A DNA stretch of 64,000 bases from assembly GCF_054482525.1 (NCBI RefSeq), contig NZ_CM137006.1. The stretch is one strand, 5' to 3'. A program made the position numbers and the translations under genes. Shown here one piece after another: positions 1-38,733 of the stretch. Below the pieces are notes generated by a model. The model had not been told where the DNA came from. It saw only the letters and a program-made list of their open reading frames with translations, and did no database searches. Positions within the stretch are counted from its first letter, which is position 1. Every line of letters begins with the position of its first letter.

Positions 1-267
1 CGCCGTTTCCTGTTCGAACTTGAGGCGTTCACGTTCGGACTGATACCAGGCCTTACGGTCATGTGGCTCCATTTCTTCCAGTGATGCCGGAACGGGAAGA
101 TCAAGAAAACAGGTCAGAATGTCAGTCACCCGATAGAGTTTCAGCTTGTCATGCCCTCCGGCTGGCTGGATGTTTTTCAGCCTTGCCGCCGCAGTCTGAC
201 GACATATTCCCGCTATCGCCGCCAGTTGATTAATGTTCAGCATCAGATTTTTCAGTTCTCGATCCAT
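1..267 (-). CDS. Putative terminase small subunit / packaging HTH protein, N-terminal part (gene continues past window start)
   Basis: Manual reverse translation from ATG at 267 gives MDRELKNLMLNINQLAAIAGICRQTAAARLKNIQPAGG..., an HTH-containing N-terminus resembling lambda Nu1-type small terminases. GGAG Shine-Dalgarno lies upstream. Not in the ORF track because it is truncated. Confidence 0.4.
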   Translation of the reverse strand, partial: MDRELKNLMLNINQLAAIAGICRQTAAARLKNIQPAGGHDKLKLYRVTDILTCFLDLPVPASLEEMEPHDRKAWYQSERERLKFEQETA

Positions 268-412
268 ACCCGCTCCAGAATGTTTTAAACATGCATCTTG
301 CGAACAACTTTCAGAAGAGGTCAAAAAATGCGCTATATGTTGAGCATAAAACAAGCAAAATTAACATGCCAAAAATAAAAATACTTAAAATTCAATACAA
401 TATGAAGATGAT

Positions 413-492
413 GATGACGAATGAAAATGCAAAAACTAGCCTTTTTCCGCGCCGCTCCCGCCCCGTGGCAGACCACTCCACCGGGAGGACCC
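413..492 (-). promoter_or_regulatory. Conserved satellite element, copy 1, between the capsid terminator and the terminase-like gene
   Basis: About 72 bp (421-492) roughly 90 percent identical to 2955-3026 and in the same orientation. Contains the inverted repeat CTCCCG...CGGGAG with a nested GTGG...CCAC. Confidence 0.4.
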
Positions 493-517
493 GTAAAAAA
501 GGCGGCTGTCGCCGCCC
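493..517 (-). terminator. Rho-independent terminator after the protease-capsid gene
   Basis: Hairpin GGCGGCTGTCGCCGCC (501-516) followed on the minus strand by a T-run (A-run 495-500 on plus), directly after the capsid stop at 524. Confidence 0.55.
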
Positions 518-523
518 TTGTTG

Positions 524-2437
524 TCATGCTCCACTCGATTTCAGTAATCCGCGATAATCGAGGGCCGCGACACCTGCATCTATGCGCACTTTCCAGGCGA
601 CACCATCAACAGTAAAGCCCACCTGCTCCTCAAGATATGGCGTATCCATACCATCAAGATAAGCGACTTCTATTGTGTCCATCCCCTTAGCTGCGGCTAC
701 ATACCATTCCTTGCTATTGGCCTTATCAAGACGTGGCTCAACAATTACTTCTGCCATATCTTTCACCACGTTAATGATGCCGGGGTTCTGATTGATAGTG
801 CTCTCATCACCAACCGGAAAGACTGATGACGATGACAGAATGGCGCGACGCGCGGCAGATTCCAGCGCGGCAGGGACCAGAACAAAAGCAGGGGTAATAT
901 TCAGTGAGTCGCCGTTAGCATCCTCCTGGAGGCGCATCAGCTTACGGGCTTCATCAAGCCCCACCATGTCCATATCCTTCGCAATAAGATTTTTATGATC
1001 GGCATGGAATAACGCTTTACCATCCGTAAATTTGCCGTTGCTGGTTAACAGAAGATAAACCAGATTACCTACTGTTCTGGCGGCCGCACGCCCCATCGCC
1101 ATGGGGATTGTAGTTAACTGGGTCAGGTCATCGTTGATAATGGCCTGACGGGTAACAGAAAAAATATTACCGTATGTGGCCAGCGCAATAGGTACACCTT
1201 TATCGCTGGTGGTGATGTATTTATATTCCGCACCTTCCGGTACTTTATCCAGCTTTGAAAAACCATTCAGACCAACGCGCTTTGCTTCATGAAAGTTTGA
1301 AAGCGATCCGGTACGCGTCCATTTCTGGAACGTTTCGCCGCTGTCCTGCCAGCCTTTCAGCACTGATTTTTCAGCACCACCAGCCAGAATATGAGAAAAA
1401 TCGCTGCTGCTGTGTGTGAAAGCTGCATTAACGACCTGCGAGCGATTTAAAAAACTGCCAACACTGATACCACGATCAGTTAGTGATGCCTGGGCCATTT
1501 CAAAAAGGCTCATCATCGCGTAAGGATTTCCCCGCTCTGGGCGTTCATACCCAAGACGAGAATAAAGCCCCTGACGAATTGCATCGCCTGTTATGTTCCC
1601 GTTACCGGCATAAATATGAGTCGGGATATTTTTATTGGATGGCGTGGACTCGCGCCCCAGCTCGTTCAACAACTTTTCACGGGCCATCTCCGGTGTACAT
1701 GATGCATCCTCCAGGCACGCCATTTTGATCCCGTCGTAACGACTGCCGAACAGGCTAAACACTTCACTTATTCCGTTGATGCGCTTCTGTTCATTACCAG
1801 CAATATTGGCTGCTCCCTGTGGCGGGGTAATCATTCCTTTAATGGTTTCAGGCATGTGTGAAAAATCTCCTGTGCGTTTCGATTCAATTCGCGCCATTGC
1901 TGTGACAGATGGCAACAATTCATCAGCAAAACCGTGCTTAAGGCATTCTTTCCCGTCCATCCAGGTTTCATCTTCCAGCATGGCGGTAATTTCCTGTGCT
2001 GATTTGCCCGTTTTTCTGGCATAAGCAGGGACTAACACGGTTTCCACCTTATCCAGCAAATCAGCATAATCACGCATATCACCAGCATTTCCGCCAGAGA
2101 TACCCCACGGCTTATGTATCATCATCATGGCGTTTTCCGGCATCACAACACGATCGCCAGCCATTGCGACAACCGAAGCCATTGAAGCCGCAACACCATC
2201 GATATAAACCGTAATTTCTGCCGGATGATTCCGTAACAGGTTATAGATGGCGATGCCTTCAAACACGTCACCACCTGGCGAATGGATCCGCAGGTCGATA
2301 TGTGAGACATCGCCCAGGGCTTTCAGGTCTTCCGCAAACTGCTTCGCGGTAATACCGAAGCCGCCAATTTCTTCATAGATGGATATTTCTGCCGCTCCGC
2401 GAACACCCAGCGCCTTAATGGTGTACCAGTGATTCAT
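524..2437 (-). CDS. Prohead protease (ClpP/S14-like) fused to HK97-fold major capsid protein
   Basis: 637 aa. N-terminal 200 aa carry ClpP-like motifs (GVAASMAS with the catalytic serine context, HKP histidine). The C-terminal ~400 aa resemble HK97-family major capsid proteins. Confidence 0.7.
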   Translation of the reverse strand: MNHWYTIKALGVRGAAEISIYEEIGGFGITAKQFAEDLKALGDVSHIDLRIHSPGGDVFEGIAIYNLLRNHPAEITVYIDGVAASMASVVAMAGDRVVMPENAMMMIHKPWGISGGNAGDMRDYADLLDKVETVLVPAYARKTGKSAQEITAMLEDETWMDGKECLKHGFADELLPSVTAMARIESKRTGDFSHMPETIKGMITPPQGAANIAGNEQKRINGISEVFSLFGSRYDGIKMACLEDASCTPEMAREKLLNELGRESTPSNKNIPTHIYAGNGNITGDAIRQGLYSRLGYERPERGNPYAMMSLFEMAQASLTDRGISVGSFLNRSQVVNAAFTHSSSDFSHILAGGAEKSVLKGWQDSGETFQKWTRTGSLSNFHEAKRVGLNGFSKLDKVPEGAEYKYITTSDKGVPIALATYGNIFSVTRQAIINDDLTQLTTIPMAMGRAAARTVGNLVYLLLTSNGKFTDGKALFHADHKNLIAKDMDMVGLDEARKLMRLQEDANGDSLNITPAFVLVPAALESAARRAILSSSSVFPVGDESTINQNPGIINVVKDMAEVIVEPRLDKANSKEWYVAAAKGMDTIEVAYLDGMDTPYLEEQVGFTVDGVAWKVRIDAGVAALDYRGLLKSSGA

Positions 2438-2643
2438 TGCTCCCCCCCAGATGCAAAACCATTCTTATCAAGCCACGCGTTAACCGCGTGTCTGACAATC
2501 TGCGCCGCACCTGGTAATGGTTGGTCAGGATGATGATTTATGTGGTCGATCCTGTACTGCTTAAGGCGCATAACGGTCTGCGCATCCAGATGAACGGAAC
2601 CACCTTTTACCTCGCCTGTGTTCAGGTCGTTAATACAATTCAC
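2434..2643 (-). CDS. Small hypothetical protein upstream of and overlapping the capsid gene
   Basis: 69-aa ORF with a GTG start preceded by AAGAGGAAG, overlapping the capsid start by 4 nt. Function unknown. Confidence 0.4.
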   Translation of the reverse strand: MNCINDLNTGEVKGGSVHLDAQTVMRLKQYRIDHINHHPDQPLPGAAQIVRHAVNAWLDKNGFASGGEQ

Positions 2644-2743
2644 AGTAACTTCCTCTTACTGACTAAACTGCGCGCATTATTGATCGATAAAAGTGGTAGA
2701 TAAACATATTTCTATCATAAAAATAGATTAATCAGATTCAGAC

Positions 2744-2769
2744 ACAAAAAAGCCGGAGAGAATCCGGCA
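2744..2769 (-). terminator. Rho-independent terminator (minus strand) inside the SSB-capsid intergenic region
   Basis: Hairpin GCCGGAGAGAATCCGGC (2752-2768) followed on the minus strand by TTTTTT. Confidence 0.5.
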
Positions 2770-2954
2770 TAAATATCCCGCCATCTGAACACGTTTTGCA
2801 CAGGCAACTCCATCTGGCAGGTGAAAAACAAATTTATTTATATATTTCAATTAATTGCAAACTGGTCTAATGACAGGGAGAAAAAAATATTGTACAGGTG
2901 AAAACAGAAATAACTTTTAATTATCAATAAATTACTACACATGCTGCCGCCGCC

Positions 2955-3026
2955 ATGAAAATGCAAAAACCAGCCTTTTTCCGCGACGCTCCCGCCCCGT
3001 GGCAGGTCACTACACCGGGAGGACCC
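2955..3026 (-). promoter_or_regulatory. Conserved satellite element, copy 2, between the SSB terminator and the capsid operon
   Basis: Direct repeat of 421-492. The same CTCCCG...CGGGAG dyad is retained. Confidence 0.4.
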
Positions 3027-3052
3027 ATAAAAAAGCCGGATTGCTCCGGCTT
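3027..3052 (-). terminator. Rho-independent terminator after the SSB gene
   Basis: Hairpin AGCCGGATTGCTCCGGCT (3034-3051) followed on the minus strand by a T-run, just 3' of the SSB stop at 3067. Confidence 0.55.
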
Positions 3053-3066
3053 CTGTTACTCGTTGC

Positions 3067-3489
3067 TTAAAACGGTATGTTATCCCCGTACGGATCATCA
3101 TTTCCCGCCTGTTGTTTTGCTCTGCTCAGTGCATCAGTAGCCTGCCCCTGTTGGCCTTTTTTGCCGCCCGGTCGCGCCGTTCTCGCACTGATTACGCTGT
3201 CTGCGATAACCTGCCAGCCCTGCCGCGTCTCCCCGTTCTGTCCGGTCCACTGGCTCACCTGCATGTTACCCGCCACGCTCAGGAGTTCACCCTTGCGGTG
3301 CTTTGCCAGTGCTTCGGCCTGTCTGCCAAACGCCAGGACGGATAACCACATCGTCGCCGTTCCGTCATCTGCCTGGCTGCACGGAAGTGGGACCGCCATA
3401 CTCGCCATCGTCATTTGTGTACCCTTGCTGGTGGTCTTTAACTGCGGGTCAGCCACCAGCCGCCCGTAAGCCGCTATCTGTGCTGTCAT
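3067..3489 (-). CDS. ssb: Single-stranded DNA-binding protein (phage/plasmid type)
   Basis: 140 aa. OB-fold core WLSVLAFGRQAEALAKHRKGELLSVAGNMQVSQWTGQNGETRQGWQVIADSV parallels E. coli SSB [52 protein letters not shown]. Gly/Gln-rich linker and acidic tail DDPYGDNIPF. Confidence 0.75.
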   Translation of the reverse strand: MTAQIAAYGRLVADPQLKTTSKGTQMTMASMAVPLPCSQADDGTATMWLSVLAFGRQAEALAKHRKGELLSVAGNMQVSQWTGQNGETRQGWQVIADSVISARTARPGGKKGQQGQATDALSRAKQQAGNDDPYGDNIPF

Positions 3490-3731
3490 GCTGTCTGCTC
3501 TCCGGTTTTAACGTTGATGGTTGTCACCTGTTCCGCTTCGGCAATCTCCCGTTCTGTCAGCGTGGCAAAGTTTGCAGCTGCCGTTGTCATGAATGAGCTA
3601 ATCAGTTCGGGATGTGCTTTCGCATATCCTTCCCCGGCGTTGCGGTCGATGATTTTTATCGACACCCTTAACCAGTGTTCCGTCAAATCAAGGGCGTGCG
3701 ATTGTGATTTTTTTGTGTGCTTCGCTGTCAT
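3486..3731 (-). CDS. Small hypothetical protein between the origin and ssb
   Basis: 81-aa ORF whose stop overlaps the ssb start (ATGA). No recognisable motif. Confidence 0.4.
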   Translation of the reverse strand: MTAKHTKKSQSHALDLTEHWLRVSIKIIDRNAGEGYAKAHPELISSFMTTAAANFATLTEREIAEAEQVTTINVKTGEQTA

Positions 3732-3782
3732 AGGCTTTATCTCACAGCAGTAAATTAAAATTTTTGCGTTTTAACCCTTCAC

Positions 3783-4005
3783 CTGTTCACCTTTTGATAT
3801 TTTATCTTTTAATTCATAATGTTAAGGGGTGAACAGTTTCACAAAAACTATTCACCAACTGTTCACCACTGTTCACCCTTGAAGCTCAATAAACAATCAA
3901 AAAGGTGAACAGTGAATAGTTTGGTGAACAGTTCATAAATAACTGTTCACCCTATAACATACTGATACAAAAGATATTTATGACAGGGTGAACAGTGGTG
4001 AACAG
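3783..4005. repeat. Iteron array, putative satellite origin of replication
   Basis: Nine copies of GGTGAACAG or its complement CTGTTCACC at 3783, 3828, 3859, 3869, 3904, 3923, 3943, 3987 and 3997, separated by AT-rich spacers, immediately 3' of the replication-protein gene. Confidence 0.7.
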
Positions 4006-4018
4006 TTATTCCATAAGT

Positions 4019-5851
4019 TTAATTTTTGCTATCGTCATTAGTGACCGATACACATGATGGCATCCAGTCTTCTGATTCCTCCGTCAGTGTCACGTTTGAA
4101 CGCAAACCGTGCTTCGTTTTCCGTTTCATATACTCCCTGCCATATTCCGCCATTGCCCCCGGCATATCTTTACCGAAGCGCGTCAGTGTTACAGGTTTAC
4201 CAAACCCATGTGCCCTCATATAAGCCAGATAGGCATGATAGAGATACCTGCGTGGGCTGAATGGCACAATTTCAGCATTACCCACTAACAGGCCATCACA
4301 CATTACCGACGCCATGAGATAGCCGCAGAAGTCCACCAGCGAATCACCTTCACGCTTTATCGCGAGTGCTTCTTCTGATTTCTGCTGCTCATATAAAAGG
4401 CGTCTGGCTTCGTCCTGGTCAGCAAACCGTGTAAGCAGATGGCGAATCACTACCGCCAGCTCACCTTCTATTTTTTCCGCCAGCATTGGATCACGTTCGT
4501 TCTCCGGTACAACTTCCGAAAAATTGAATATCACCCGACGACGTGAGATCCCCCCGCTGCGGTCACTGAATGACATGGCGTTATTGTTAACCGCCAGCAC
4601 TACTGCCGGAATACGCGTTGAGTAGGGGGCTTTGTGTTTCGGGTCAATTGCCACCTTGTCACCGCCTGTAATAGCCTTAATCCCTGCCCCATCACCAGCG
4701 TAGCGGGTCATATCCGGCATGATAATCAGCGAAAAGCCAACCACTAACGCGCGTTCCCTTGCATCTTCCAGCGCCTTCATGCTTGCCGATACTGTGTTGG
4801 CCTTACCCGCCAGCATGGTGCAAATCTCCGCCATCACGCTTTTACCACTTCCCCCTGGACCTGTTACCTCAATGAATAACTGCCAGTCGTACCGGTTCGC
4901 CAGCACCATGAATAATGCAGCCAGTACGCGATCCGCCTTGCGGTCATTCTCAGCCACCGAACGGCGTAACCACTTCCAGAAATTCGGCGCATGTGTTGCC
5001 AGCGTTTCCCCCTCTGCTGGTGGGCTGAAAGGTAATTCACTGGCAATTAACAACCAGTCGTTTTTGTTATGCTCCCGAAAATTACCTGTTCTGGTATCAA
5101 ATACCCCGTTACTGAATCCAATCAGGTTACGGGCTGTATTCCCCATTACAGGCAAACTTAACTTCATGGTATCGACCGCCGATTTAATGGCGTTCTGCGA
5201 ATAGCTGATCTCCGCATCAATGAAAATCTGTGCCATAGCTCGCTGTAATTCTTTATCCTGTACTGGCTCCCATACAACGCCGTTGTAATGGTGAACAGTG
5301 TCAGAGTCAGCATGAATCGCCAGTTCACCGCCATAATGTGCCAGGAGAACTTCGCCGCGTTGACTTGCTCCCATCTGGTTAAGCGCCAGTGATGAAGCGT
5401 TATCGTCTTTTACCCGCTCTTTTTTCTTTACAGGCAGTTCAACTACCTTTTTCTTTTCCGCCAGCTCTGCCCGTTCACGTTCCAGATATTCGCGCCAGTT
5501 CTCCCGTTTCTGGCTGTGCATTCCTTCAGGGTAATAATCAGCATCCCTGACACCTGCCGCTGCCAGTTTCTGCCCGATGGTATTAACAAGCCCCGGACGC
5601 AATAACCCCGCCTGATAGAGACGCACGCGATAGCGTCCGTCCGGTACGATTTGCAGGTTGTCCAGTTCGGCAAGTTGTTGCTCTCCAAGCCAGACAGGTG
5701 GCACGTTATCGCCAGCCAGTCGCCCGTCCTGTTCCTGCCACTGATTCGCATGTGCCCACGCATCACTACCCGCAAAAATGATGACTTCCGTCATTTTGTC
5801 ACGCGGCTGGTGTTTTAAATTTGGCGCTTTTTTCATTTCTGCTCTCTCCAC
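4019..5851 (-). CDS. Replication initiator, P4 alpha-like primase/helicase family (D5_N plus SF3 NTPase)
   Basis: 610 aa with Walker A GPGGSGKS and the general architecture of phage/plasmid primase P4-family C-terminal domains. Sits next to the iteron array. Confidence 0.7.
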   Translation of the reverse strand: MERAEMKKAPNLKHQPRDKMTEVIIFAGSDAWAHANQWQEQDGRLAGDNVPPVWLGEQQLAELDNLQIVPDGRYRVRLYQAGLLRPGLVNTIGQKLAAAGVRDADYYPEGMHSQKRENWREYLERERAELAEKKKVVELPVKKKERVKDDNASSLALNQMGASQRGEVLLAHYGGELAIHADSDTVHHYNGVVWEPVQDKELQRAMAQIFIDAEISYSQNAIKSAVDTMKLSLPVMGNTARNLIGFSNGVFDTRTGNFREHNKNDWLLIASELPFSPPAEGETLATHAPNFWKWLRRSVAENDRKADRVLAALFMVLANRYDWQLFIEVTGPGGSGKSVMAEICTMLAGKANTVSASMKALEDARERALVVGFSLIIMPDMTRYAGDGAGIKAITGGDKVAIDPKHKAPYSTRIPAVVLAVNNNAMSFSDRSGGISRRRVIFNFSEVVPENERDPMLAEKIEGELAVVIRHLLTRFADQDEARRLLYEQQKSEEALAIKREGDSLVDFCGYLMASVMCDGLLVGNAEIVPFSPRRYLYHAYLAYMRAHGFGKPVTLTRFGKDMPGAMAEYGREYMKRKTKHGLRSNVTLTEESEDWMPSCVSVTNDDSKN

Positions 5852-6132
5852 GCGGCAATCATGTTTTTCAGTTCCTGTAGTTTTTTATCAACATCCATAC
5901 ATGACACATGGTTATTTCTGGAAAGCGGGATTTCCCGCCTGAATCTGCTAATAAAGATCTCCACGTTCAGCGAACTATGAAATGAATAGCCATCACGAAT
6001 AAAATACACACGGTCAAACATCAGTTCTTTTACCGTTACTCTGTTACCGTTCTTATCCAGATAAATAGCGCCGGGGATAATTTTGGGGTGTGCATAACCG
6101 CTGGCAGTCAAGCCAGATAAATATGTTCTCAT
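5833..6132 (-). CDS. Small hypothetical protein of the replication operon
   Basis: 99 aa, Shine-Dalgarno GGGGA upstream, 3' end overlaps the start of the replication gene. Confidence 0.45.
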   Translation of the reverse strand: MRTYLSGLTASGYAHPKIIPGAIYLDKNGNRVTVKELMFDRVYFIRDGYSFHSSLNVEIFISRFRREIPLSRNNHVSCMDVDKKLQELKNMIAAWREQK

Positions 6133-6138
6133 GATTAT

Positions 6139-6451
6139 TTATCCCCGATTTGAATCAGTATTCGCTTTCTTTATGGCATTTAATGCATCTGTGGCATTTT
6201 CAATGGTGCACCGTAACGAAATATCAAACTGCCCAAGCATTGCCAGTAACAAACCGATATTACCCATATCAATGCGCATAGCCTTTTCGTCATAGTCCTC
6301 ATTTTCTGACGCATGCCACATCAGGCTACCAATTGACGCAATACCCATTGATATATTGTCAGTAGCCCCATCCGCAGCGGAATAAACCTTTTTAGCAATA
6401 TCATGCTCACAGTTAAAATGCGGATTAATCAGGTACTGGTAATTTGACATA
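6139..6451 (-). CDS. Small hypothetical protein of the replication operon
   Basis: 104 aa starting [15 protein letters not shown]. The ORF-track entry 6139..6894 is longer, but its 5' extension is Pro/Arg/Leu-rich junk. The ATG at 6451 overlaps the TGA of the upstream gene. Confidence 0.45.
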
Positions 6452-6991
6452 TCAGGCATGGCACACCCCCTGGCGAATACGGGCGGCGAATACAGCAACA
6501 CAACCGGACGGGCAGCGGTTACGCGCTTCACGTTCCGTCCAGGCGGTGACGTGGATGATTTGATGGTCTGACGCGCCAAAGATGATAAAGCGCCAGAGAA
6601 AGGCGGTTTGAGAATGTACAAGGGTAGGGATAGTAGCCATGTTGGCAGCCTCCTTTGACAGTGAAGAATTTCCACCGCAGGAAACGCCAATTTCGCTGGC
6701 GGTGGACTGAACGGGGTTGGCGTAACCGGCGTCAAAGGGAACCGGCGCTTCCGAAGAAGCCCCCGCCCAGCCCACCATAACTTTGATGTGAGCGAATGCG
6801 GACGATAAAAAAGACGCTGGCGCGTCATATATCGCCTTTGACATTTCCAGGACGCCAATCCCGGCACCAGATTTTGCTGGTGCGGATAAATCATAGCCCT
6901 GGCTTGCAGTGGCGATCAACTGGTTTTTTACACCCGCTTTATTCAGGTTGTGCGAGTCCCGCCCTTGCGGGTGTGTGGTATGATTTCTCAT
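6452..6991 (-). CDS. Hypothetical protein, first gene of the replication operon
   Basis: 179 aa from ATG at 6991 with GAGG Shine-Dalgarno. This is the 3' part of ORF-track entry 6452..7741, whose upstream part overlaps the operators and the plus-strand regulator gene. Stop overlaps the next start. Ala/Gly/Ser-rich, no recognised motif. Confidence 0.35.
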
Positions 6992-7088
6992 AGCGACCTC
7001 GATACTATCGTTATCGTTGGTGGTTAGAAGCCCCGTTACTGCTCCAACAGTGCGGGGTTTCGTCGTTTCTGCACCTTGCATCAACAAG

Positions 7089-7140
7089 GTGTTGAACACC
7101 AATGTAAACTCAGGTGTTGAACACGTCAAGTGTTGAACAC
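7089..7140. promoter_or_regulatory. Three direct copies of the 11-bp near-palindrome GTGTTGAACAC (operator array) in a divergent promoter region
   Basis: Copies at 7089-7099, 7114-7124 and 7130-7140, between the minus-strand operon start (6991) and the plus-strand small gene (7191). Confidence 0.5.
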
Positions 7141-7190
7141 TTGTTTTTTTTCCTGCATACTGCATTTGTTTTTTGTGAGGGGTACACAAC

Positions 7191-7370
7191 ATGGCGACAA
7201 AAGCAGTAAACGCAAAATCACAAACAGTTGCGGCAAGGGTTCCGCATGAAGTTATGAACAATGTTGAGGCGGTAAAAATGCCTGGTGAAAGTACAGGGCA
7301 ATTTGTAACAGCAGCATTAAAGCGAGAAGTTGAATACCGCCAGCGACGCAAGGCTAAAGAGCAAGAATAA
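7191..7370 (+). CDS. Putative ribbon-helix-helix DNA-binding regulator
   Basis: 59-aa [62 protein letters not shown] found by manual translation; it is below the ORF-track length cutoff. Strand-helix-helix pattern, directly downstream of the operator repeats. Confidence 0.4.
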
Positions 7371-7427
7371 TCACTATCAGCGCTGTGGTGTGAGGTACTC
7401 CGGCGCATTGCTTTACAGGTCGGCACT

Positions 7428-7637
7428 ATGAGCAAAAAATACCTATCCACTGAAGAGATTTTCGCAGAACAACGAAGATTGCTTTTACAGAGCATTGTTG
7501 CACGCCAGAAAGAAAAGGCACACGCTAAACAAATGCCACCAAATACAGAACCAGCGCCTACAAAATTTGCGCTTGATGAGTTTCTCAATAAACAGCCCCG
7601 GGTAATGAAAGCTAACAGGAACCGCCCACCAGGCTGA
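7428..7637 (+). CDS. Small hypothetical protein co-oriented with the RHH gene
   Basis: 69-aa ORF followed by a terminator. Confidence 0.3.
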
Positions 7638-7701
7638 TCACATTGCCCACCAGCCAGCAAATCGCTATGATGGCTGGGCTTATGTTTAGTGTATTCCCAC
7701 T

Positions 7702-7733
7702 GGCGACCTCTGATCCGGGTCGCCTTTGTTTTA
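7702..7733 (+). terminator. Rho-independent terminator, possibly bidirectional between the plus-strand genes and alpA
   Basis: Hairpin GGCGACC-tctgatccg-GGTCGCC followed by TTTGTTTTA. Confidence 0.5.
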
Positions 7734-7751
7734 TGTGTCATATGCCCCCCT

Positions 7752-7961
7752 TTACGCTGCCTTGCCTGAATTAATGCGATCCCGGCTTTTAACCCATTCC
7801 ATAACCTCGGACAGCAGCCAACCTACAGAACGACCGCCCAGATTACGGCGTGACGGGAAATTCCCTTTTTTCTCCAGTTCATAGCGTGTAGTGCGACACA
7901 CTCCAGTTAACTTACGACATTCATCCTCACGGATTACGCGATCTTCATTTATTTCACGCAT
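7752..7961 (-). CDS. alpA: AlpA/Vis-family transcriptional regulator (excision activator)
   Basis: 69 aa. KSVGW...E.EW core motif and size match AlpA of CP4-57 and Vis of P4. Position next to int is typical. Confidence 0.65.
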
Positions 7962-8380
7962 ACAAAAACCTACATAAAAAATTACGTATATAAACTTTTC
8001 TCTTAGCTGTAGATATATGAGATCGGATATTACTTAGATTCTTTTTTCACCTCTTAAATTAAAAACACAACCTTGCTAAAGGCTTTGTTCGCTAAGGTTC
8101 GTAGAAGCTCGTTAGTGTTTAAAATCGTGTCACGAGTTTTTAAGCGATGCAACAAAAAATGTCGTTATTTGGCATTACGCTTGAATTATCTCATTAAAAA
8201 CAAATAGATAAACCATCAAGTGTTGGAACAATCAAGAAACAGAGAATAAAAGTTCAGAAGAAGACATTCCAATTTTTTGATGGTTGACATATATAAAGCG
8301 AAGATATTTGCAGATATTTTCCGATATTCTACGATTTATTCACGGCTGTAATCTCTTAAAGAAAAAACAGCCGTAATTTG

Positions 8381-9619
8381 TCAAGAATTTTGGGTGTAAA
8401 TTCGCGGGGTCATAACAACGATTTTTTTATCATTGTTCTGGAGAAGCTCGAGACGGTCTACCCATAGATTAAGAGCATCACGTTTTGCATCAAGATAACG
8501 GGAGTGGTTATAGACTCGTTGCATCCCCGGCATCTGGTGGGCGGTAAGCTGCTCGACAATATGCGGATCCACGCCTAAATCGTTCAGCATGGTTGTAAAT
8601 GTGTGCCGGATATCGTGTAACGTCCAGGGGGCTTGATTAATTCGTCTGTGCGCTGTTCTTCCGTACTCTGCTACCGAAGATTGTCCTTTCAGTTCACCAA
8701 GCAATAAGCCTGTGTGTCTGTTCTGCTCCACCAGTTGCGTGACGAACGGCAAAATGCTTTCCGGTATTGGCCTGAATATGGCGACCTTCGTTTTGCTGTG
8801 CTCCTTCGGTACTGTCCAGAGCATTTCTTTAAAATCCCACTCCTGCACCTCAGAGCGCCTTAGCTCAGTGGTACGGCATCCAAAAACAATCAGGAGGCGA
8901 ATTAGGGCGCTGTAGTATGGCGGGAATATTTTGTCATCCAGGGCGCGGAGTAATTCCCCAAGCTCCTTATTTGTTAGTACGCGCTCGCTCACTTCTGCTT
9001 TTTTTCCCACATCACCGACAACCATATCATCAAGAACGTTGCTGATTGCGTATCGTCGTTTTCGGCAGTACTTAAGCGCCTGTTTGCATACCTGTAGCAA
9101 AAATCCGGCAGATACTGGGCTTCGCTTTGCCATCTGGTCAAAACATGCCAACCAGTGCCGTAGCTCGCATTTTTCCAACGGCAAAGCGCCAATCTGGCTG
9201 ATTATGTGTTTATTGATCCGGCTTTTCAGTGATTCGTAGTCAGTGCGCTTTTCCTTTGCATACGATTCAAGCCAGTAAGTGAGCGCTTCCTTAACTGTCA
9301 CGGGGGCTAACGCATCCTGTACAGCACGATTAAGCTCATAGCGCGGATTTTTCCCCTCAGCCAGCCAGGCGCGACACTGTGCTGCTTTTTCCCTGGCTGC
9401 TTTCAGGCTCAGATCGGGATAATTGCCCAGTCTCAGACGTTCCGGTGATACCTGCCTACCAGTTCCGGCCCTGTAAGTGAAATACCAGGTTAACAGGCCG
9501 CTGGTGGAATGTCTTACGCTAAGATTGCCACCGTCATTAAAAAAGGCGTTTTTTGTGGTTGGTGATCCGCTTAATTTTCGTAAAAGAGTGTCGCTAAGTC
9601 TATGAATTGCGCTGCTCAT
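8381..9619 (-). CDS. int: Tyrosine site-specific integrase (P4-type)
   Basis: 412 aa. C-terminal catalytic motifs HDIRHTF and RVYNHSRY (tyrosine nucleophile context), N-terminal arm-binding region. Confidence 0.85.
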   Translation of the reverse strand: MSSAIHRLSDTLLRKLSGSPTTKNAFFNDGGNLSVRHSTSGLLTWYFTYRAGTGRQVSPERLRLGNYPDLSLKAAREKAAQCRAWLAEGKNPRYELNRAVQDALAPVTVKEALTYWLESYAKEKRTDYESLKSRINKHIISQIGALPLEKCELRHWLACFDQMAKRSPVSAGFLLQVCKQALKYCRKRRYAISNVLDDMVVGDVGKKAEVSERVLTNKELGELLRALDDKIFPPYYSALIRLLIVFGCRTTELRRSEVQEWDFKEMLWTVPKEHSKTKVAIFRPIPESILPFVTQLVEQNRHTGLLLGELKGQSSVAEYGRTAHRRINQAPWTLHDIRHTFTTMLNDLGVDPHIVEQLTAHQMPGMQRVYNHSRYLDAKRDALNLWVDRLELLQNNDKKIVVMTPRIYTQNS

Positions 9620-10023
9620 GTTTCGCGTTTCCGGTCATCAAAATTAACTACACCATTGACTACACCGTGCATCGTACAAGGGCAAACCGTGACGAACAAG
9701 AGCGAACAAGGAAAACAAAATTTTCCTTTATAATCATAGCGATGAATGCACACAAAACACTACCACGAACACCCGCGAACACTAGATGATAAATAACTAT
9801 CATCTATCGTTGGCATCAGCGACATCTGTCACATTCCTGTCAATAGCGTTAACTGCTTCAAATTTTTGATTCATACCTGCCCCCTGGCCCCTGTCAAATG
9901 CTTGACGGCTCGCCCTAATTCTCTAAATTGTATTTCTAGAGTTGGCGAGGTTTTGAACAGCCCCCTCTCTGACCCCGGTTTATTCCATCTTACTTGTATA
10001 AGATTTGCGAAGGATGTCGAAGC

Positions 10024-10248
10024 ATGGAAAAGGGTACTGTTAAGTGGTTCAACAATGCCAAAGGGTTTGGTTTCATCTGCCCTGAAGGCGGCGGCGAAGA
10101 TATTTTCGCTCATTATTCCACCATTCAGATGGATGGTTACAGAACGCTAAAAGCTGGACAATCCGTTCAGTTTGATGTCCACCAGGGGCCAAAAGGCAAT
10201 CACGCCAGTGTTATTGTGCCCGTCGAAGTAGAAGCGGCAGTCGCATAG
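10024..10248 (+). CDS. cspD: Cold-shock-like protein CspD
   Basis: 74 aa starting MEKGTVKWFNNAKGFGFI with cold-shock domain motifs. ORF-track start trimmed to the conserved start. Confidence 0.85.
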   Translation: MEKGTVKWFNNAKGFGFICPEGGGEDIFAHYSTIQMDGYRTLKAGQSVQFDVHQGPKGNHASVIVPVEVEAAVA

Positions 10249-10320
10249 CTCTTCTGTCTCATTGTGTACATCCTAAAGGCAAAATGCCAGCCCGATCGGC
10301 TGGCATTTTTATCTCAAAAA

Positions 10321-12267
10321 TTACTCTCGTGCCAGAGCATCTACTGGATCCAGTCGTGCCGCATTTCGTGCGGGTAACCAGCCAAATAAAATCCCGGTGA
10401 CCGTCGAGCAGAGAAACGCCAGCAGCAGCGCCAACGGTGAAAAACCAATCTCCCAGCCGGGTAAGAAAAGCTGCAAGGTGAAAGCAATTAACAGTGACAG
10501 TGTTATTCCCAACGCGCCACCGACCAGGCAAACCAGTACGGCTTCGATCAGAAACTGTTGCAAAACATCGCTTGCTCGCGCACCTACAGCCATGCGAATG
10601 CCAATTTCCCGCGTCCGCTCGGTCACTGACACCAGCATAATATTCATTACACCAATACCGCCCACCACCAGTGAAATCACCGCCACCAGCGTCAGAAACA
10701 GTTGTAAAGTACGTGTGGTCTTTTCAACGGTTTTCAAGACGCCGTCCATGTTCCAGGTAAAGAAATCCTTCTTACCGTGGCGCAGTAAAAGTAAACGCGT
10801 GAGTTGCTGTTCCGCCTCAGCGCTGTCAAATCCTTCTTTCACCCTGACAGTAATGGAGTTCAGCCACGACTGGCCCATAACTCGCCCGGACATCGTGCTG
10901 TAAGGTAGCCAGACACGCAGCACTTTACTGCTACCAAACATCGACTGTTTTTCTTCCGCCACACCAATGACTCTGGCGGGCATATTGCCGACCAGAATCA
11001 CCTCGCCAACCACATCTGCTTTATGGGGGAAAAGCTGGCGGCGAGTATTACTGTCGAGAACCACGACCTGCGCACGACCGTTCAGCTGCTCCTGATTAAA
11101 GGTGTTCCCTTCACTGAAGGTCATGCCATAGACATTAAAATAATCGCCGCTCACGCCATTGGCACTGGCAGCCACATCAACATTGTTATAACGCAGGCGC
11201 AGGTTTTGCGAGACGGCAGGTGTGGCTGAGGCGACCCACGGTTGTTTTTGGATGGCGATTAAGTCGTCGTACTTCAGCGCCTGCTGATATTGCGGATCGT
11301 CATCGCCAAAATCTTTCCCGGGATAGACATCAATAGTATTCGTACCAATAGAACGAATATCCGCCAGCACCATTTGTTTGGCGGCGTCGCCCACCACGAC
11401 AATGGAAACCACCGACGCAATACCGATAATAATCCCCAGCATGGTCAGTAAAGTACGCATTTTATTCGCTGCCAGCGCCCGCCATGCCATCGTCAGCGCC
11501 TCGTTAAAACCGCTGACAAACTGCCGCCAGCCAGAGGCCGTGTTGACAACAGGTTCCGTCCCGCCAGTAGCATTCACTTTTTCAACGGCGGGAGGATTGC
11601 GCACAATTTCGCCGTCGCGAATTTCGATCACCCGCTCGGCCTGAGCAGCGACCTGCGGATCGTGGGTAACGATAATCACCGTATGCCCGCGATCGCGCAG
11701 CTGATGCAGGATCGCCATCACCTCTTCGCCAGAATGGCTGTCCAGTGCGCCGGTCGGTTCATCGGCAAGAATTACCTGACCGCCGTTCATCAATGCCCGC
11801 GCGATGCTGACGCGCTGTTGCTGACCACCCGAAAGCTGTGCCGGATAATACTCTGTACGGTCTTCCAGCCCCAGTCGTTGCAGCAACTCCTGGGCGCGAA
11901 GCAGCCGCTGTTTCCGCTCAAGACCAGCATAGACGGCGGGTACTTCAACGTTCTGCTCGGCGGTTAAATGCGAAAGCAAATGGTAACGCTGGAAAATAAA
12001 GCCGAAATGCTCGCGGCGTAGTTGCGCCAGCGCATCGGCGTCCAGCGTGGCAACATCCTGACCGGCGACGCGATAGGTGCCGCTGGTGGCCTTATCCAGG
12101 CAGCCGAGAATATTCATCAGGGTCGATTTACCGGAACCCGAAGCGCCGACAATCGCCACCATCTCACCAGCATAAATATCGAGGGTGATGCCCTTCAGCA
12201 CCTCAACCTGCTCATCACCGGCAGGATAGCTGCGACGAATATCCTTTAATTCGAGCAAGGGCGTCAT
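10321..12267 (-). CDS. macB: Macrolide export ABC transporter ATP-binding/permease MacB
   Basis: 648 aa with Walker [18 protein letters not shown] signature and C-terminal FtsX-like permease. Overlaps macA by 4 nt. Confidence 0.9.
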
Positions 12268-32851: not shown

Positions 32852-33568
32852 ATGAATGAATTTTTTCCTTTAGCAAGCGCCGCCGGGATGACCGTCGGCC
32901 TTGCCGTTTGTGCATTGATTGTCGGGCTGGCGCTGGCGATGTTCTTTGCGGTATGGGAGTCTGCGAAATGGCGTCCTGTCGCGTGGGCAGGTTCAGCGCT
33001 GGTAACCATTCTGCGTGGCCTGCCAGAAATTCTGGTGGTGCTGTTTATCTATTTTGGCTCCTCGCAGCTGCTGCTGACGCTTTCGGATGGCTTCACCATC
33101 AATCTTGGGTTCGTGCAGATCCCGGTGCAGATGGACATTGAGAACTTCGACGTTAGCCCGTTCCTTTGTGGTGTCATCGCTCTGTCACTGCTGTATGCCG
33201 CCTATGCCTCGCAAACGCTGCGCGGCGCGTTGAAAGCGGTGCCGGTGGGCCAGTGGGAATCTGGTCAGGCGCTGGGGCTGTCGAAATCGGCTATCTTTTT
33301 CCGTCTGGTGATGCCGCAGATGTGGCGTCATGCGCTGCCTGGTCTCGGTAACCAGTGGCTGGTGCTGCTGAAAGATACCGCGCTGGTCAGTTTGATTAGT
33401 GTGAATGATTTAATGCTGCAAACCAAAAGCATCGCTACCCGTACCCAGGAACCGTTTACCTGGTACATTGTGGCGGCGGCGATTTACCTGGTGATCACCC
33501 TGCTCAGTCAGTACATTCTCAAACGCATTGACCTGCGCGCGACACGTTTTGAGCGGAGGCCCAGCTAA
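32852..33568 (+). CDS. artQ: Arginine ABC transporter permease ArtQ
   Basis: 238-aa membrane permease. Synteny. Confidence 0.85.
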
Positions 33569-34236
33569 TGTTTGAGTATTTACCCGAACTGATGAAAGGG
33601 CTGCACACCAGCCTGACGCTAACCGTTGCCTCGCTGATTGTGGCACTGATTCTGGCATTGATTTTTACCATCATCCTGACACTGAAAACGCCGGTACTGG
33701 TGTGGCTGGTGCGGGGTTATATCACGCTGTTTACCGGTACGCCGCTGCTGGTGCAGATCTTCCTGATTTATTACGGGCCGGGCCAGTTCCCGACGTTGCA
33801 GGAGTATCCGGCACTGTGGCATCTGTTGTCAGAACCGTGGTTATGTGCGCTGATTGCGTTATCGCTGAACAGTGCGGCGTATACCACGCAGCTGTTTTAC
33901 GGTGCAATTCGTGCGATCCCGGAAGGTCAGTGGCAGTCCTGTAGCGCCCTGGGAATGAGCAAAAAAGATACGCTAGCGATCCTGCTGCCGTATGCCTTTA
34001 AACGCTCGCTCTCTTCTTATTCCAACGAAGTGGTGCTGGTGTTCAAAAGTACCTCTCTGGCTTACACCATTACGCTGATGGAAGTGATGGGATACAGCCA
34101 GTTGTTGTACGGACGCACCTACGATGTCATGGTGTTCGGTGCGGCAGGGATTATTTACCTGATTGTTAACGGTCTGTTGACGCTGATGATGCGTCTGATC
34201 GAGCGCAAAGCACTGGCATTCGAACGGCGGAATTAA
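33568..34236 (+). CDS. artM: Arginine ABC transporter permease ArtM
   Basis: 222-aa membrane permease. Synteny. Confidence 0.85.
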   Translation: MFEYLPELMKGLHTSLTLTVASLIVALILALIFTIILTLKTPVLVWLVRGYITLFTGTPLLVQIFLIYYGPGQFPTLQEYPALWHLLSEPWLCALIALSLNSAAYTTQLFYGAIRAIPEGQWQSCSALGMSKKDTLAILLPYAFKRSLSSYSNEVVLVFKSTSLAYTITLMEVMGYSQLLYGRTYDVMVFGAAGIIYLIVNGLLTLMMRLIERKALAFERRN

Positions 34237-34302
34237 TGTAGCTGCGTGCTGATGCCGGATGCGTCGTGGACGTCTTACCCGACCTGCATAGTGCATAAAT
34301 TC

Positions 34303-34337
34303 TTATAATGAAGACGGACAACTCACTAAGTTGTCCG
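34303..34337 (+). terminator. Rho-independent terminator of the artPIQM operon
   Basis: Hairpin GACGGACAACTCACTAAGTTGTCCGTC followed by TTTTTTT. Confidence 0.6.
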
Positions 34338-34461
34338 TCTTTTTTTATTTCATTTAAATTATTTAATCATATTTATTGCATATAAATTCACTTGATGGCA
34401 TTGTTATCCCATGCCGCAGACACGGCCAAAAATCATAAGATTGACAGACGGGAGTTCCATC

Positions 34462-35193
34462 ATGAAAAAGTTAGTTCTTGCCGCTTTACTTGCTTCCTTT
34501 ACTTTCGGTGCTTCTGCCGCAGAGAAAATCAATTTTGGCGTTTCAGCCACCTATCCCCCCTTTGAATCTATAGGTGCTAATAATGAGATTGTCGGCTTTG
34601 ATATCGACCTGGCAAAAGCCTTGTGCAAACAAATGCAGGCAGAATGTACTTTTACTAATCACGCGTTCGACAGCCTGATCCCGTCACTGAAATTCAGAAA
34701 ATATGACGCCGTAATCTCCGGTATGGATATCACCCCGGAGCGTAGCAAACAGGTATCGTTTACCACGCCCTACTATGAAAACTCAGCCGTCGTGATTGCC
34801 AAAAAAGATACCTACAAAACGTTTGCCGATCTGAAAGGCAAACGTATTGGGATGGAAAACGGTACTACGCACCAGAAATATATTCAGGATCAGCACCCGG
34901 AAGTGAAAACTGTCTCCTATGACAGTTATCAGAATGCCTTTATCGATCTGAAAAATGGTCGTATTGATGGGGTATTTGGTGACACAGCGGTGGTTAATGA
35001 ATGGCTGAAAACCAACCCGCAACTGGGCGTTGCGACTGAAAAAGTGACCGATCCGCAATACTTCGGCACCGGCCTGGGTATCGCTGTACGTCCGGATAAC
35101 AAAGCTCTGCTGGAAAAACTGAATAACGCGCTGGCAGCAATTAAAGCTGACGGTACATATCAGAAAATCAATGACCAGTGGTTCCCACAGTAA
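34462..35193 (+). CDS. artJ: Arginine-binding periplasmic protein ArtJ
   Basis: 243 aa from MKKLVLAALLASF. Periplasmic binding protein. Confidence 0.85.
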   Translation: MKKLVLAALLASFTFGASAAEKINFGVSATYPPFESIGANNEIVGFDIDLAKALCKQMQAECTFTNHAFDSLIPSLKFRKYDAVISGMDITPERSKQVSFTTPYYENSAVVIAKKDTYKTFADLKGKRIGMENGTTHQKYIQDQHPEVKTVSYDSYQNAFIDLKNGRIDGVFGDTAVVNEWLKTNPQLGVATEKVTDPQYFGTGLGIAVRPDNKALLEKLNNALAAIKADGTYQKINDQWFPQ

Positions 35194-35221
35194 GATTCAG
35201 AAAGCCGCACCTGCGGCTTTT

Positions 35222-36349
35222 TTATTGCTTCACCAGCAGCGTCAGCACTTCATAGTGCGCGGTGTGCGGGAACATATCAAAAAGCTGTACCCGTTCGATG
35301 CGGTAACCTGGCAGTTCGCGGATATCTTTCGCCATGGTTTGGGCGTTACAGCTGGAGTAGATAATAAAACGCGGTGCCATCGTTGAGAGATAATCACACA
35401 GCGGTTTACCAATGCCGCGGCGCGGCGGGTTAACCAGCACCAGCTCCGGCACTTCCCCCTGGGCGGTGGCAAACTGAGTGGAGTCCAGCGCCTGAAATTG
35501 CAAACGCGTTAAGCCCAGTTCAGCAGCTGACTGATTCGCACAGGCAATGGCCTCTGGTGCAATTTCGATCCCGGTTAACTGCATGTCAAGCGTCGCGCAG
35601 TGTAAACCAAAGCCCCCCACGCCGCAGAAGAGATCCCACATATGGTTTACCGGTAGTTGCCGCACCCAGTCGCGCGCGGTAGCGTAAAGCTGGCTGGCGA
35701 CCGCCGGATTGGTCTGGAAGAAACTTTGCGGACGGATCCACAGCGGTACGTCGTTAAAACGCTCTGCCAGCGCCTGTTGTTCGGTCAGGTAGATCTCCGT
35801 CTCCCCTTCCATGATCGCCATATGTACCGGCTGAATATTGACGGTAATAACTTTTAGCTGCGGCAGTTGTTCCTGTAACCACGGCAGCGCCTTACGCAGT
35901 TGCGCCAGTTTGGTTTCAGAACGCAGTACAAAGCGCAGCATCATACCGCCATCGCTCTGGCTTTCGGTCAGCAGAATGTATTTCAGTTCGCCACGCTTAC
36001 GCGCCACGTTGTAGGGCGTTAACCCCGCTCGGGCGATAAACGGTTTTAGCGCCGCAAAAACGGGCGCAAATGAGGCAGGATAAAGCGGGCAGTCACAAAG
36101 GTCTTCTGGTGTGCCGTCTCGATGCAGCATACCGAGCAGTGGTTTTTCAACGCTACCACTCACCACCATTTTGGCTTTATTACGAAACCCTTGTTCCGGG
36201 CCTGACACCGGCGCGCACCATTCCTCAACCGGAAAGTCGGCGAGCAGATTTTTAAGATCGGCGGTTTTAGCGGAGAGTTGCTCTGGAATCGGCTGCGTTA
36301 TCCACTGACAGGAACGACAGCGACCCGCGTCGTAAAGTGCGCACTGCAT
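35222..36349 (-). CDS. rlmC: 23S rRNA (uracil747-C5)-methyltransferase RlmC
   Basis: 375 aa with N-terminal Cys cluster [12 protein letters not shown]. Synteny. Confidence 0.8.
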
Positions 36350-36389
36350 ACATTGACCTTCACATCATCAGGGGCGACGATTATACACA

Positions 36390-36878
36390 TTATTGCAACT
36401 GGAAGAACCGCCGACTGGTCGAGGGAACGAACAGCAGCATCAGGATGAGCATATCCGGCAGCTTCTGCAGCATCAGGCTATGGAAGATTTCACGTTTTGA
36501 TTCACCGGGAATGCTGAACAGCTCCGGATAACCATACCCCAGCGAAGCCGCCCACAAGTAACTTGCGGCCGTGATTTGTGTCAACAGATACAGCCAGCGC
36601 GCCCAGCGACGCCCTTTCACCAGTGAAAACGCACACCAGATCTCAATAAAAACCAACACCAGACTGCTTAAAAAGACCAGCGTTAAACTCCAGGTTTGTA
36701 CGCTGCGATGAATGAACTCGCCAATACCGCGCACGCCCAGCGTATTGAAAATCATCAGCACGTCGAGGCCACGGATCATAATAATGGCGAGCGCCGCCAC
36801 CTGCACCAGCGCAGGCACATTCAGGCGAGCATGAGATGAAGATGTTTTCTTAAAAAATCCCAACGTTTCGTCTTCCAT
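36390..36878 (-). CDS. ybjO: Inner membrane protein YbjO
   Basis: 162-aa membrane protein. Synteny. Confidence 0.7.
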   Translation of the reverse strand: MEDETLGFFKKTSSSHARLNVPALVQVAALAIIMIRGLDVLMIFNTLGVRGIGEFIHRSVQTWSLTLVFLSSLVLVFIEIWCAFSLVKGRRWARWLYLLTQITAASYLWAASLGYGYPELFSIPGESKREIFHSLMLQKLPDMLILMLLFVPSTSRRFFQLQ

Positions 36879-36937
36879 GAAAACAATGCCGCGACATGCG
36901 CGGCATTATGTAGCCAGGTTGGCAAATTTTAGTGTCT

Positions 36938-38724: not shown

Positions 38725-38733
38725 CTTTGCTCC

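Follow-up and report, generated by a model that had tools for sequence, protein, structure and literature searches.

Genes and repeated element at the locus

The window analysed here is a 64,000-nucleotide stretch of DNA whose beginning carries a series of minus-strand genes. Read in the direction of transcription, the SSB gene (3067-3489; phrog_44), the last of a replication module, ends in an intrinsic terminator (3027-3050; RNAfold -15.4 kcal/mol plus U6) that abuts the second copy of a conserved element (2955-3026). Downstream of this copy are a further intrinsic terminator (2744-2769; RNAfold -14.8 kcal/mol), the small conserved gene orf69 (2434-2643; phrog_4934, E=5e-30) and, overlapped at its start by orf69, a gene for a ClpP-like prohead protease/major capsid protein fusion (524-2437; from the RefSeq annotation of the matching island). 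The capsid gene in turn ends in an intrinsic terminator (493-520; RNAfold -16.2 kcal/mol plus U6) that abuts the first copy of the element (421-492). Beyond it begins a gene for a small-terminase (TerS) homologue (DUF1441, phrog_141; 161 aa in full), of which the 5' part (1-268) is present before the gene runs off the window. Iterons were found at 3783-4016. At locus L002 the island lies between tRNA-Ile and nfeF and carries int, HTH, Icd-like, DUF4222, primase and SSB genes. Its gene order is that of EcCICFT073, and it fits the plan of Gram-negative cos-type PICIs, islands of about 10-15 kb at a fixed att site with int, alpA, primase/ori and unidirectional genes. The capsid fusion protein is 57% identical to its helper-type phage counterpart. 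The identification of orf69 as the helper's gpW-like adaptor was rejected, as no BLASTP match was found, and the capsid module therefore did not arise from the phage head operon by simple deletion.

The sequence-only reading had described the two copies as direct repeats of about 90% identity. Its coordinates are right, and alignment of the copies gave 67 shared bases out of 72 (93%). A longer direct repeat (421-514 and 2955-3048; 94 nt) is 88% identical, and the 64-kb window holds exactly two occurrences of the 40-nt core pattern, while 100 shuffles gave none. The placement of each copy directly 3' of a minus-strand terminator was confirmed by a hairpin and U-tract at both, as was the existence of the third terminator at 2744-2769; a simple terminator scan listed only this last one on the minus strand, and the other two were seen by RNAfold folding. 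The late-type gene context was also correctly described, copy 1 being upstream of the terS-like DUF1441 gene and copy 2 upstream of orf69 and the capsid fusion. The dyad ascribed to the element was recovered in part: CTCCCG...CGGGAG is found in both copies, and the nested GTGG...CCAC is intact in copy 1 only, as copy 2 reads GTGT...CCAC.

The element as a probable lambda-type cos core

Three roles had been proposed for the element, namely helper-activated late promoter, antisense-RNA target and packaging signal, and of these only the packaging signal is supported. cos is the DNA signal where lambda-type terminase cuts concatemers, starting or ending packaging. On the minus strand the core opens with cosQ (GGGTCCT); a spacer of 22 nt leads to cosN, whose 12-nt cohesive end has CG on either side, and an I2-like segment follows. 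In copy 1 (cos-1) these parts occupy 492-486, 485-464, 463-452 (cohesive end GGGCGGGAGCGG) and 451-421; in copy 2 (cos-2) they occupy 3026-3020, 3019-2998, 2997-2986 (cohesive end GGGCGGGAGCGT) and 2985-2955. Alignment to the lambda junction revealed that GGGTCCT, the spacer length, the CG preceding GGGCGG and the following CGCGG are all kept, and in both copies cosQ lies 22 nt ahead of the predicted nick, the same as in lambda and the CFT073 prophages. The cosN pattern is CG-GGGCGGGAGCG(G/T)-CG, in which positions 1-6 of the end are as in lambda and differences fall within 7-12 only; the consensus of the predicted 12-nt 5' cohesive end of the island type is GGGCGGGAGCGK. Natural cohesive-end variation occurs at these same positions, 7-12, and the 7-bp cosQ is highly conserved (PMC4669245). 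Terminase is predicted to cut the minus strand after 464 and after 2998, with the nick on the other strand at cos-1 placed 12 nt away by the lambda alignment. The first base of the GenBank records of cdtI and Tritos corresponds to window position 2997, at the predicted nick, the cdtI record being circular with a start that was its depositors' choice.

The 72-bp core is also present in the phages cdtI, HannyBb and mEp460 and in 120 IMG/VR loci. Moreover, window positions 2795-3026 are about 92% identical to DNA just upstream of DUF1441 terS in lambdoid prophages, which is the place of cos in lambda, and 2191 of 5426 complete E. coli genomes contain a full or partial match to this segment. A literature search on the cohesive-end string and on DUF1441 returned nothing relevant. 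Like lambda cos, the island sites have the 7-bp cosQ, a spacer of 22-23 nt and a CG-flanked 12-nt end starting GGGCGG, about 185-195 bp upstream of terS. They differ from it in cohesive-end positions 7, 8, 9 and 11 (in cos-1 also 12), in a cosB without sequence relation to that of lambda, in a TerS of the DUF1441 rather than the Nu1 family, and in the terminator that precedes cosQ. The element is read as a packaging site because of the lambda cos alignment, the termini of phage records, the thousands of prophages in which it stands upstream of terS, and the published cos sites of EcCICFT073. Judged by this homology, the 72-bp element is the cosB-independent cosQ-cosN-I2 core of a lambda-like cos, and both copies are very probably (at about 0.88) lambda-type cos sites of an EcCICFT073-type PICI of about 10.7 kb in E. 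coli.

Transcriptional control of the capsid and terminase genes, through a late promoter that the helper activates or through antitermination at the element, is improbable. Each copy does stand after a terminator and ahead of a late-type gene, and one promoter-like site was found in the cosB of cos-1 (372 to 343, minus strand). However, the conserved 72 bp are homologous to lambda cosQ-cosN and to no promoter. No sigma-70-like site was found in the core, and the promoter-like sites of the region are not above chance (3 observed against 6.6 expected). At cos-2 a terminator separates the element from the capsid operon, and the same element occurs in phages without a preceding terminator. The activator-site consensus of Ogr and Delta, found upstream of promoters, is TGT-N12-ACA; it does not occur in 1-5000, the nearest sites being at 5259 and 5876, so the suggested activation by P2 Ogr or P4 Delta gained no support. 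A promoter within the variable cosB flanks is possible. The region from which a non-coding transcript of about 280 nt had been envisaged, downstream of the start of copy 2, is instead cos-2 with its phage-type cosB.

An RNA feature is very improbable, whether as an antisense-RNA target like P4 seqA/seqC or as a structured non-coding RNA formed around the CTCCCG/CGGGAG dyad. In its favor, a comparison of 29 distinct cos variants has the dyad kept in 91% of cells, and elsewhere in the island there is a C4 antisense RNA gene (Rfam; 6695-6782), which has its own a1/b1 target at 6844-6896. The covariation analysis that had been suggested found the dyad well kept but gave no independent support for a hairpin, the right arm being, for most of the sequences, a fixed part of the pattern used to find them. 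That arm falls within the cohesive end, whose conservation serves terminase; changes on both sides of the dyad come almost all from one split, between lambda-type and cdtI-type sites; and the functional cos1 and cos2 of EcCICFT073 break two of the four inner dyad pairs. An Rfam scan of 1-9000 (E<=5) had no match on the element, and no complementary sequence involving 421-492 or 2955-3026 was found among the longest inverted repeats of 1-11500. The island itself is a PICI and no satellite of the P4 type. A small protein was considered as well, as plus-strand ORFs start MKMQK in both copies; it was rejected, since all five differences in the 72 nt alter an amino acid.

One core with different cosB flanks

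Further analysis covered 120 IMG/VR viral contigs or loci with 140 cos sites. In this survey cosQ is GGGTCCT in 134 sites and the spacer is 22 nt long in 121, and the same core is joined to four cosB types (A-D), each with its own TerS N-terminus. Up to about +43 the consensuses of the types agree; their divergence beyond that point begins exactly where the originally described repeat ends. The diverged flank, cosB, is where packaging specificity sits, and the 72 bp are the specificity-independent part. In type A the cosB has a two-copy TTTTCACCTG set, 77 bp apart, and cosB type co-varies with the TerS N-terminus. In phages no terminator stands ahead of the element, and the one at cos-1 is conserved in satellite copies.

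The cosB of cos-1 (269-420, minus strand) belongs to type C, which departs from the other types from +44 on, has MDRELKNLMLNINQLAAIAGICRQTAAARLKNIQ as the TerS N-terminus in every case and accounts for only one of about 90 phage-context sites. It is presumed to be the binding region of the island's own TerS homologue, which starts 196 bp after the cos-1 nick (166-186 bp in phage types A-D). This protein matches the PHROG terminase small subunit (E=4e-56), is 66% identical over its full length to mEp460 TerS, and is alignable to type-A phage TerS over residues 66-140 only, at 47% identity. With a central and C-terminal portion 47-66% identical to phage TerS, it would be expected to work with a helper's large terminase (TerL). 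The core of cos-1, the terS-proximal end of its cosB and the TerS resemble mEp460-like phages, whereas the central ~100 bp of the cosB are unlike the type B cosB of mEp460. Searches of PDB and NCBIfam with the island TerS gave no match, RppC included, and no RppC link was found.

The cosB of cos-2 (2795-2954, minus strand) is of the phage-type A, with two TTTTCACCTG repeats (repeat family D5); in cdtI-like phages and prophages the DNA preceding DUF1441 terS matches it at 92-94% identity. The whole cdtI-type cos is shared at this level, and the phages differ in that terS follows it. At cos-2 the phage homology stops at the terS ribosome-binding site, and the terminator at 2744-2769 takes the place of the gene. 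By this comparison, cos-2 is an orphan copy, 94% identical and without terS, of the entire type-A cos found in a common lineage of E. coli lambdoid prophages. Among satellites, 17 of 18 type-A sites lack a following terS, and a type-A cos-2 accompanies cos-1 in 14 of the 20 satellites that have the latter; order and orientation do not vary, and the distance between the two is mostly 2535 bp. Members of the family inside a type-B prophage have A and C sites only, so reliance on that helper's TerS is not possible for them.

It is unlikely that cos-1 alone works in packaging. In that view cos-2 would be a passenger, left over from the recombination with a type-A phage by which the capsid module came in; it would persist because it is recent, and have no role or a mildly harmful one. 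The expected terS is missing after cos-2, and cos-2 itself is absent in about five of the 20 satellites, as well as in E. coli VL40 (L013); with about a quarter of satellites lacking it, cos-2 is dispensable. EcCICFT073 was transferred more by lambda and phi80 once its cos2 had been deleted (PMC6092414), which suggests that a second site may be neutral or costly with some helpers. On the other hand, cosQ, cosN, I2 and a non-coding cosB of 172 bp are all retained in cos-2, with 94% identity to the phage sites and 97% from satellite to satellite. The neighbouring capsid protein shares only 57% identity with that of the phage, so the capsid and cos-2 were not gained jointly in the recent past. 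Across 14 independent loci cos-2 also keeps one position and one orientation. Furthermore, cos2 of EcCICFT073 is functional by experiment (PMC6092414).

Proposed packaging scheme and relation to known satellites

In EcCICFT073 both cos1 and cos2 were found to be functional, and cos1 adjoins the specificity gene rppA (PMC6092414, PMC6739421). Two functional cos sites per PICI are thus already known, and the arrangement is not new. Both sites were located in the EcCICFT073 sequence in the present analysis. The two islands share a plan of int, alpA-type HTH, YnfO, Icd-like, DUF4222, primase, SSB, small ORF, capsid homologue, specificity gene and 93-aa ORF, with identities of 71% for SSB, 49% for primase and 72% for the 93-aa ORF. 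They also share two cos sites each, a cosQ and cosN resembling those of helper phages next to a different cosB, a main cos directly upstream of the packaging-specificity gene, and a terminator hairpin abutting cosQ, the one after the SSB gene of the island being near-identical to that at cos1 of EcCICFT073. In contrast, the cohesive end of the island described here is of the GGGCGGGAGCGK type and not lambda's GGGCGGCGACCT, and its capsid protein is a ClpP-protease/MCP fusion and not of the lambda E/D types. Its cos sites are direct, 2.5 kb apart and flank the capsid gene, whereas those of EcCICFT073 are inverted and ~0.8 kb apart. At the rpp position it has a true TerS homologue (DUF1441, phrog_141), for which BLASTP gave no meaningful match to RppA.

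Sequence homology, position, cosB/TerS co-variation and conservation of the cos pair support the following scheme. The island TerS, whose DNA-binding domain at the N-terminus matches the type C cosB, would recruit the helper's large terminase to cos-1, which could then serve as the start of island packaging regardless of the helper's cosB type. Nicking of cosN would leave the 12-nt 5' cohesive end, and cosQ is needed for termination. cos-2 may offer a type-A helper terminase a direct starting point on the island, and may also act as a termination site for any of these terminases, because termination needs only cosQ-cosN-I2. One island would then combine two strategies: a private channel, consisting of its own TerS and a cosB type rare in phages, and an orphan, near-exact copy of the type-A cos that the commonest lambdoid prophage lineage of E. 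coli carries. That this frees the island from dependence on the helper's cosB type, and that packaging from cos-1 to cos-2 gives units of 8.2 kb, is a possible but tentative account.

Each strategy has a counterpart, by functional analogy only, in Gram-positive satellites: the SaPI TerS-S with its SaPI pac site redirects the helper TerL to a satellite-specific site, and SaPIbov5 carries its helper's own packaging site (cos mimicry). These pac or HNH-cos systems are unrelated in sequence to the island; in the latter, SaPI-like strategies of both kinds would appear to occur together. Under the packaging reading, an unexplained repeat becomes a pair of predicted terminase cut sites, and the island joins the EcCICFT073 group of cos-packaged PICIs. 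The current understanding of PICI packaging is unchanged. What would be new is modest: a branch of this group with a genuine small-terminase homologue instead of Rpp, two cos sites in one island that differ in specificity and are each phage-matched, and, in E. coli lambdoid phages, a universal cosQ-cosN-I2 core combined with at least four cosB/TerS specificity pairs. The latter could be used in predicting which islands can be mobilised by which prophages. If the tentative two-site scheme is true, the 8.2 kb cos-1-to-cos-2 units would re-circularise into capsid-less derivatives with a hybrid cos. The structure of locus L110 is exactly that of such a derivative; it also indicates that the interval between the repeats can be lost, as the view of cos-2 as a passenger would have it.

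A duplicated cos-like element

The sequence-only reading had described a ~72-bp direct repeat lying directly after terminators, and the repeat was found where it had been placed, with the copies at 421-492 (copy 1, cos-1) and 2955-3026 (copy 2, cos-2) identical at 67 of 72 positions. In a repeat search of the window the similarity extended over 94 nt (421-514 and 2955-3048, 88% identity), and a 40-nt core occurred twice in the window and in none of 100 shuffles. The local genes are all on the minus strand, and each copy does directly follow a minus-strand terminator: a hairpin and U-tract lie 3' of the SSB gene just before copy 2 (-15.4 kcal/mol) and 3' of the capsid gene just before copy 1 (-16.2 kcal/mol). 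The third terminator, at 2744-2769, is also present (-14.8 kcal/mol). The dyad ascribed to both copies held for its outer CTCCCG/CGGGAG arms, and the nested GTGG/CCAC is whole in copy 1 only. Plus-strand ORFs starting with MKMQK (421-615 and 2955-3140) are probably non-coding, as all five differences inside the 72 bp alter an amino acid.

Three roles had been suggested for the element, of which packaging signal was retained and late promoter and P4 seqA/seqC-like antisense target were not. Promoter-like sites were not enriched in the region and no TGT-N12-ACA was found near the element; no Rfam family matched it, and among the longest inverted repeats of the island none was complementary to it. 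An RNA or hairpin role gained no support from covariation. The dyad is 91% paired across 29 cos variants; changes on both sides come mainly from the split between lambda-type and cdtI-type sequences, and the functional sites of EcCICFT073, the model Gram-negative phage-inducible chromosomal island (PICI), do not pair at two of the four inner positions.

Homology to lambda cos and position upstream of terS indicate, at the level of sequence, that the repeated elements are packaging signals (cos). Positions 2795-3026 are ~92% identical to the DNA immediately 5' of the DUF1441 terS in lambdoid prophages, and a full or partial match is found in 2191 of 5426 complete E. coli genomes. In lambda, cos occupies the same place upstream of terS (Nu1 starts at bp 191). 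The cdtI and Tritos records of the phage collection have as first base the exact equivalent of window 2997. Both copies, read on the minus strand, can be aligned to the lambda junction, GGGTCCTTTCCGGTGATCCGACAGGTTACG / GGGCGGCGACCT / CGCGG, copy 2 reading GGGTCC-TCCCGGTGTAGTGACCTGCCACG / GGGCGGGAGCGT / CGCGG. This yields GGGTCCT, a 22-nt spacer, the nick-flanking CG, the cohesive end and a second CG. We take GGGTCCT to be cosQ, following the sequence and lambda coordinates of Wieczorek and Feiss; the identity is supported by its recurrence at 134 of 140 sites examined (the 22-nt spacer recurs in 121). The cohesive end's left half, GGGCGG, is the same as in lambda and the differences are confined to positions 7-12. 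Variation at bp 7-12 is common among lambda-like phages, which conserve both the 7-bp cosQ and the flanking CG pairs (PMC4669245). At 23373-23409 (minus strand) the cosQ...CGGGGCGG pattern is matched loosely, with one mismatch per half and a 22-nt spacer; the remainder of the core is missing, and the match is probably due to chance.

One core and four cosB types

Scanning IMG/VR with the core gave 120 loci, in which four different sequences, designated cosB types A to D, follow one and the same core. The four consensuses are alike to about +43 from the nick, save a few positions, and diverge beyond. As +43 corresponds to window 421 and 2955, the ends of the repeat, the repeated 72 bp therefore comprise cosQ, cosN and an I2-like segment, the stretch of cos that does not depend on cosB. 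In phages lambda, 21 and N15 the cosQ-cosN-I2 portion is needed for termination and is not specificity-dependent (PMC4669245). The TerS N-terminus was found to be specific to the cosB type (MSNVSGIGDAYYW in A, MDRELKNLTLNISQLAALSGVHRQTAAARLQ in B, MDRELKNLMLNINQLAAIAGICRQTAAARLK in C and MDHELKNLVLNINQLAALSGLHRQTVVARLK in D), as would be predicted were cosB the region that TerS binds.

Cos-1 (421-492 plus 269-420, minus strand) is type C and lies upstream of the island's own type-C TerS, which is 66% identical over its full length to mEp460 TerS (type B) and alignable to type-A TerS over residues 66-140 only (47%). Satellite contexts account for 20 occurrences of type C and a phage context for only one (L075, which has terL, portal and capsid and is a real phage). 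Cos-2 (2955-3026 plus 2795-2954, minus strand) is type A and 94% identical to phage type-A cos across 172 non-coding bases; the capsid protein beside it shares only 57% identity with its phage counterpart. The phage homology extends as far as the terS ribosome-binding site and then gives way to a terminator, and terS is absent from 17 of 18 satellite type-A sites.

A type-A cos-2 accompanies cos-1 in 14 of the 20 satellites, in constant order and orientation and mostly at a spacing of 2535 bp; one of the others has an unclassified site at this position and five have no cos-2, which is also missing from E. coli VL40. In one island variant (L014, 5289-5989) a gene for tail assembly and a fragment of a tail protein lie between a frameshifted capsid gene and cos-1, and cos spacing reaches ~3.3 kb. 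All 24 type-A phage sites have T at cohesive-end position 12; among satellites, 18 of 20 cos-1 sites have G there and the cos-2 sites are mixed, thus the window's two cohesive ends differ by one base. Lambda tolerates mismatches at positions 9 and 12 at a roughly fourfold cost (PMC4669245).

The island and its relation to EcCICFT073

E. coli WCHEC035148 has a near-identical island, sited between tRNA-Ile and nfeF, with the order int, a hypothetical gene, HTH, YnfO, Icd-like, DUF4222, primase, a small gene, SSB, copy 2, orf69, a ClpP-protease/major-capsid fusion, copy 1, DUF1441 and a 93-aa ORF. The window starts within the DUF1441 gene, whose product matches phrog_141, a PHROG family named "terminase small subunit" (E=4e-56). 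PICIs with a CLP_protease gene, located in tRNA-Ile2, have been mentioned (PMC10111431), and the window island appears to belong to this family. In the stretch that separates primase from the following small gene (3783-4016), GGTGAACAGT recurs about ten times, in both orientations; these copies are probably the island's replication-origin iterons. A P1/P7-type c4-icd module within the PICI is marked by three Rfam matches upstream of the Icd-like gene (6695-6896, minus strand): C4 antisense RNA (82 bits), isrK (75 bits) and, slightly below gathering, the c4 a1/b1 target (43.8 bits).

The cos pair is of a kind already known from EcCICFT073, which was located in CFT073 (L015) at 32931-43655 and has the same gene order as the window island (SSB 71%, primase 49% and terminal 93-aa ORF 72% identical). 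Both of its cos sites are functional, with lambda-like cosQ and cosN and a non-lambda cosB; cos1 is recognised via the island's RppA bound to helper TerS, and deletion of cos2 increases transfer (Fillol-Salom et al.; PMC6092414, PMC6739421). In L015, cos1 was found on the plus strand at 42529-42564, upstream of the gene for RppA (144 aa), and cos2 on the minus strand at 43339-43304. Although the cos types differ, EcCICFT073 cos1 (42490-42564) and window cos-2 (3020-3050) share a near-identical hairpin, GCCGGAG(A/C)AATCCGGC, with a T-run abutting cosQ; in the core-bearing phage loci compared, no terminator precedes cosQ.

The two islands differ in their cohesive ends and in the arrangement of the sites, which are direct and flank the capsid gene in the window island but are inverted in EcCICFT073. 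The former has a protease-capsid fusion, the latter lambda E/D homologues. Where EcCICFT073 has Rpp, the window island has a TerS homologue, which showed no similarity to RppA and no sequence match in PDB. By eye, the cosB of EcCICFT073 cos2 resembles the cos of a CFT073 lambdoid prophage (L015 3504-3670); the published comparison of cos2 is with lambda and phi80 only. A 258-bp stretch of 90% identity at the cos position has been reported between a PICI and its helper (PMC10111431).

A possible division of labour between the sites

Lambda cos homology, the place upstream of terS, cosB-TerS co-variation and conservation of the pair, all shown in sequence comparisons, are the basis for a proposed mechanism. 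Island TerS would bind cosB-C and bring the helper large terminase to cos-1; the TerL proteins of type-A and type-B phages are 87% identical. A type-A helper terminase could start directly on the island at cos-2, and cos-2 may also be usable as a termination site for any of these terminases.

A natural derivative, L110, with primase 99.7% and SSB 100% identical to the window's, exactly lacks orf69 and the capsid gene. At 5884-7338 one hybrid cos, with the terminator and spacer of cos-2 fused to the cosB of cos-1, stands between SSB and TerS. This structure is the product expected of a packaged unit running from cos-1 to cos-2 and then re-circularised, and fits the proposed mechanism; recombination between the repeats would give the same product. 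The same satellite family was also observed inside terL of an mEp460-like prophage (L084, 1-11983; L095, 8431-13940), with terL residues 1-333 preceding the island in L084 and residues 325-405 following it in L095, the helper-embedded arrangement described for PICIs (PMC10111431). Here the helper cos is type B and the island sites are A and C only. In that setting these islands would be unable to use helper TerS specificity, which fits the proposed mechanism.
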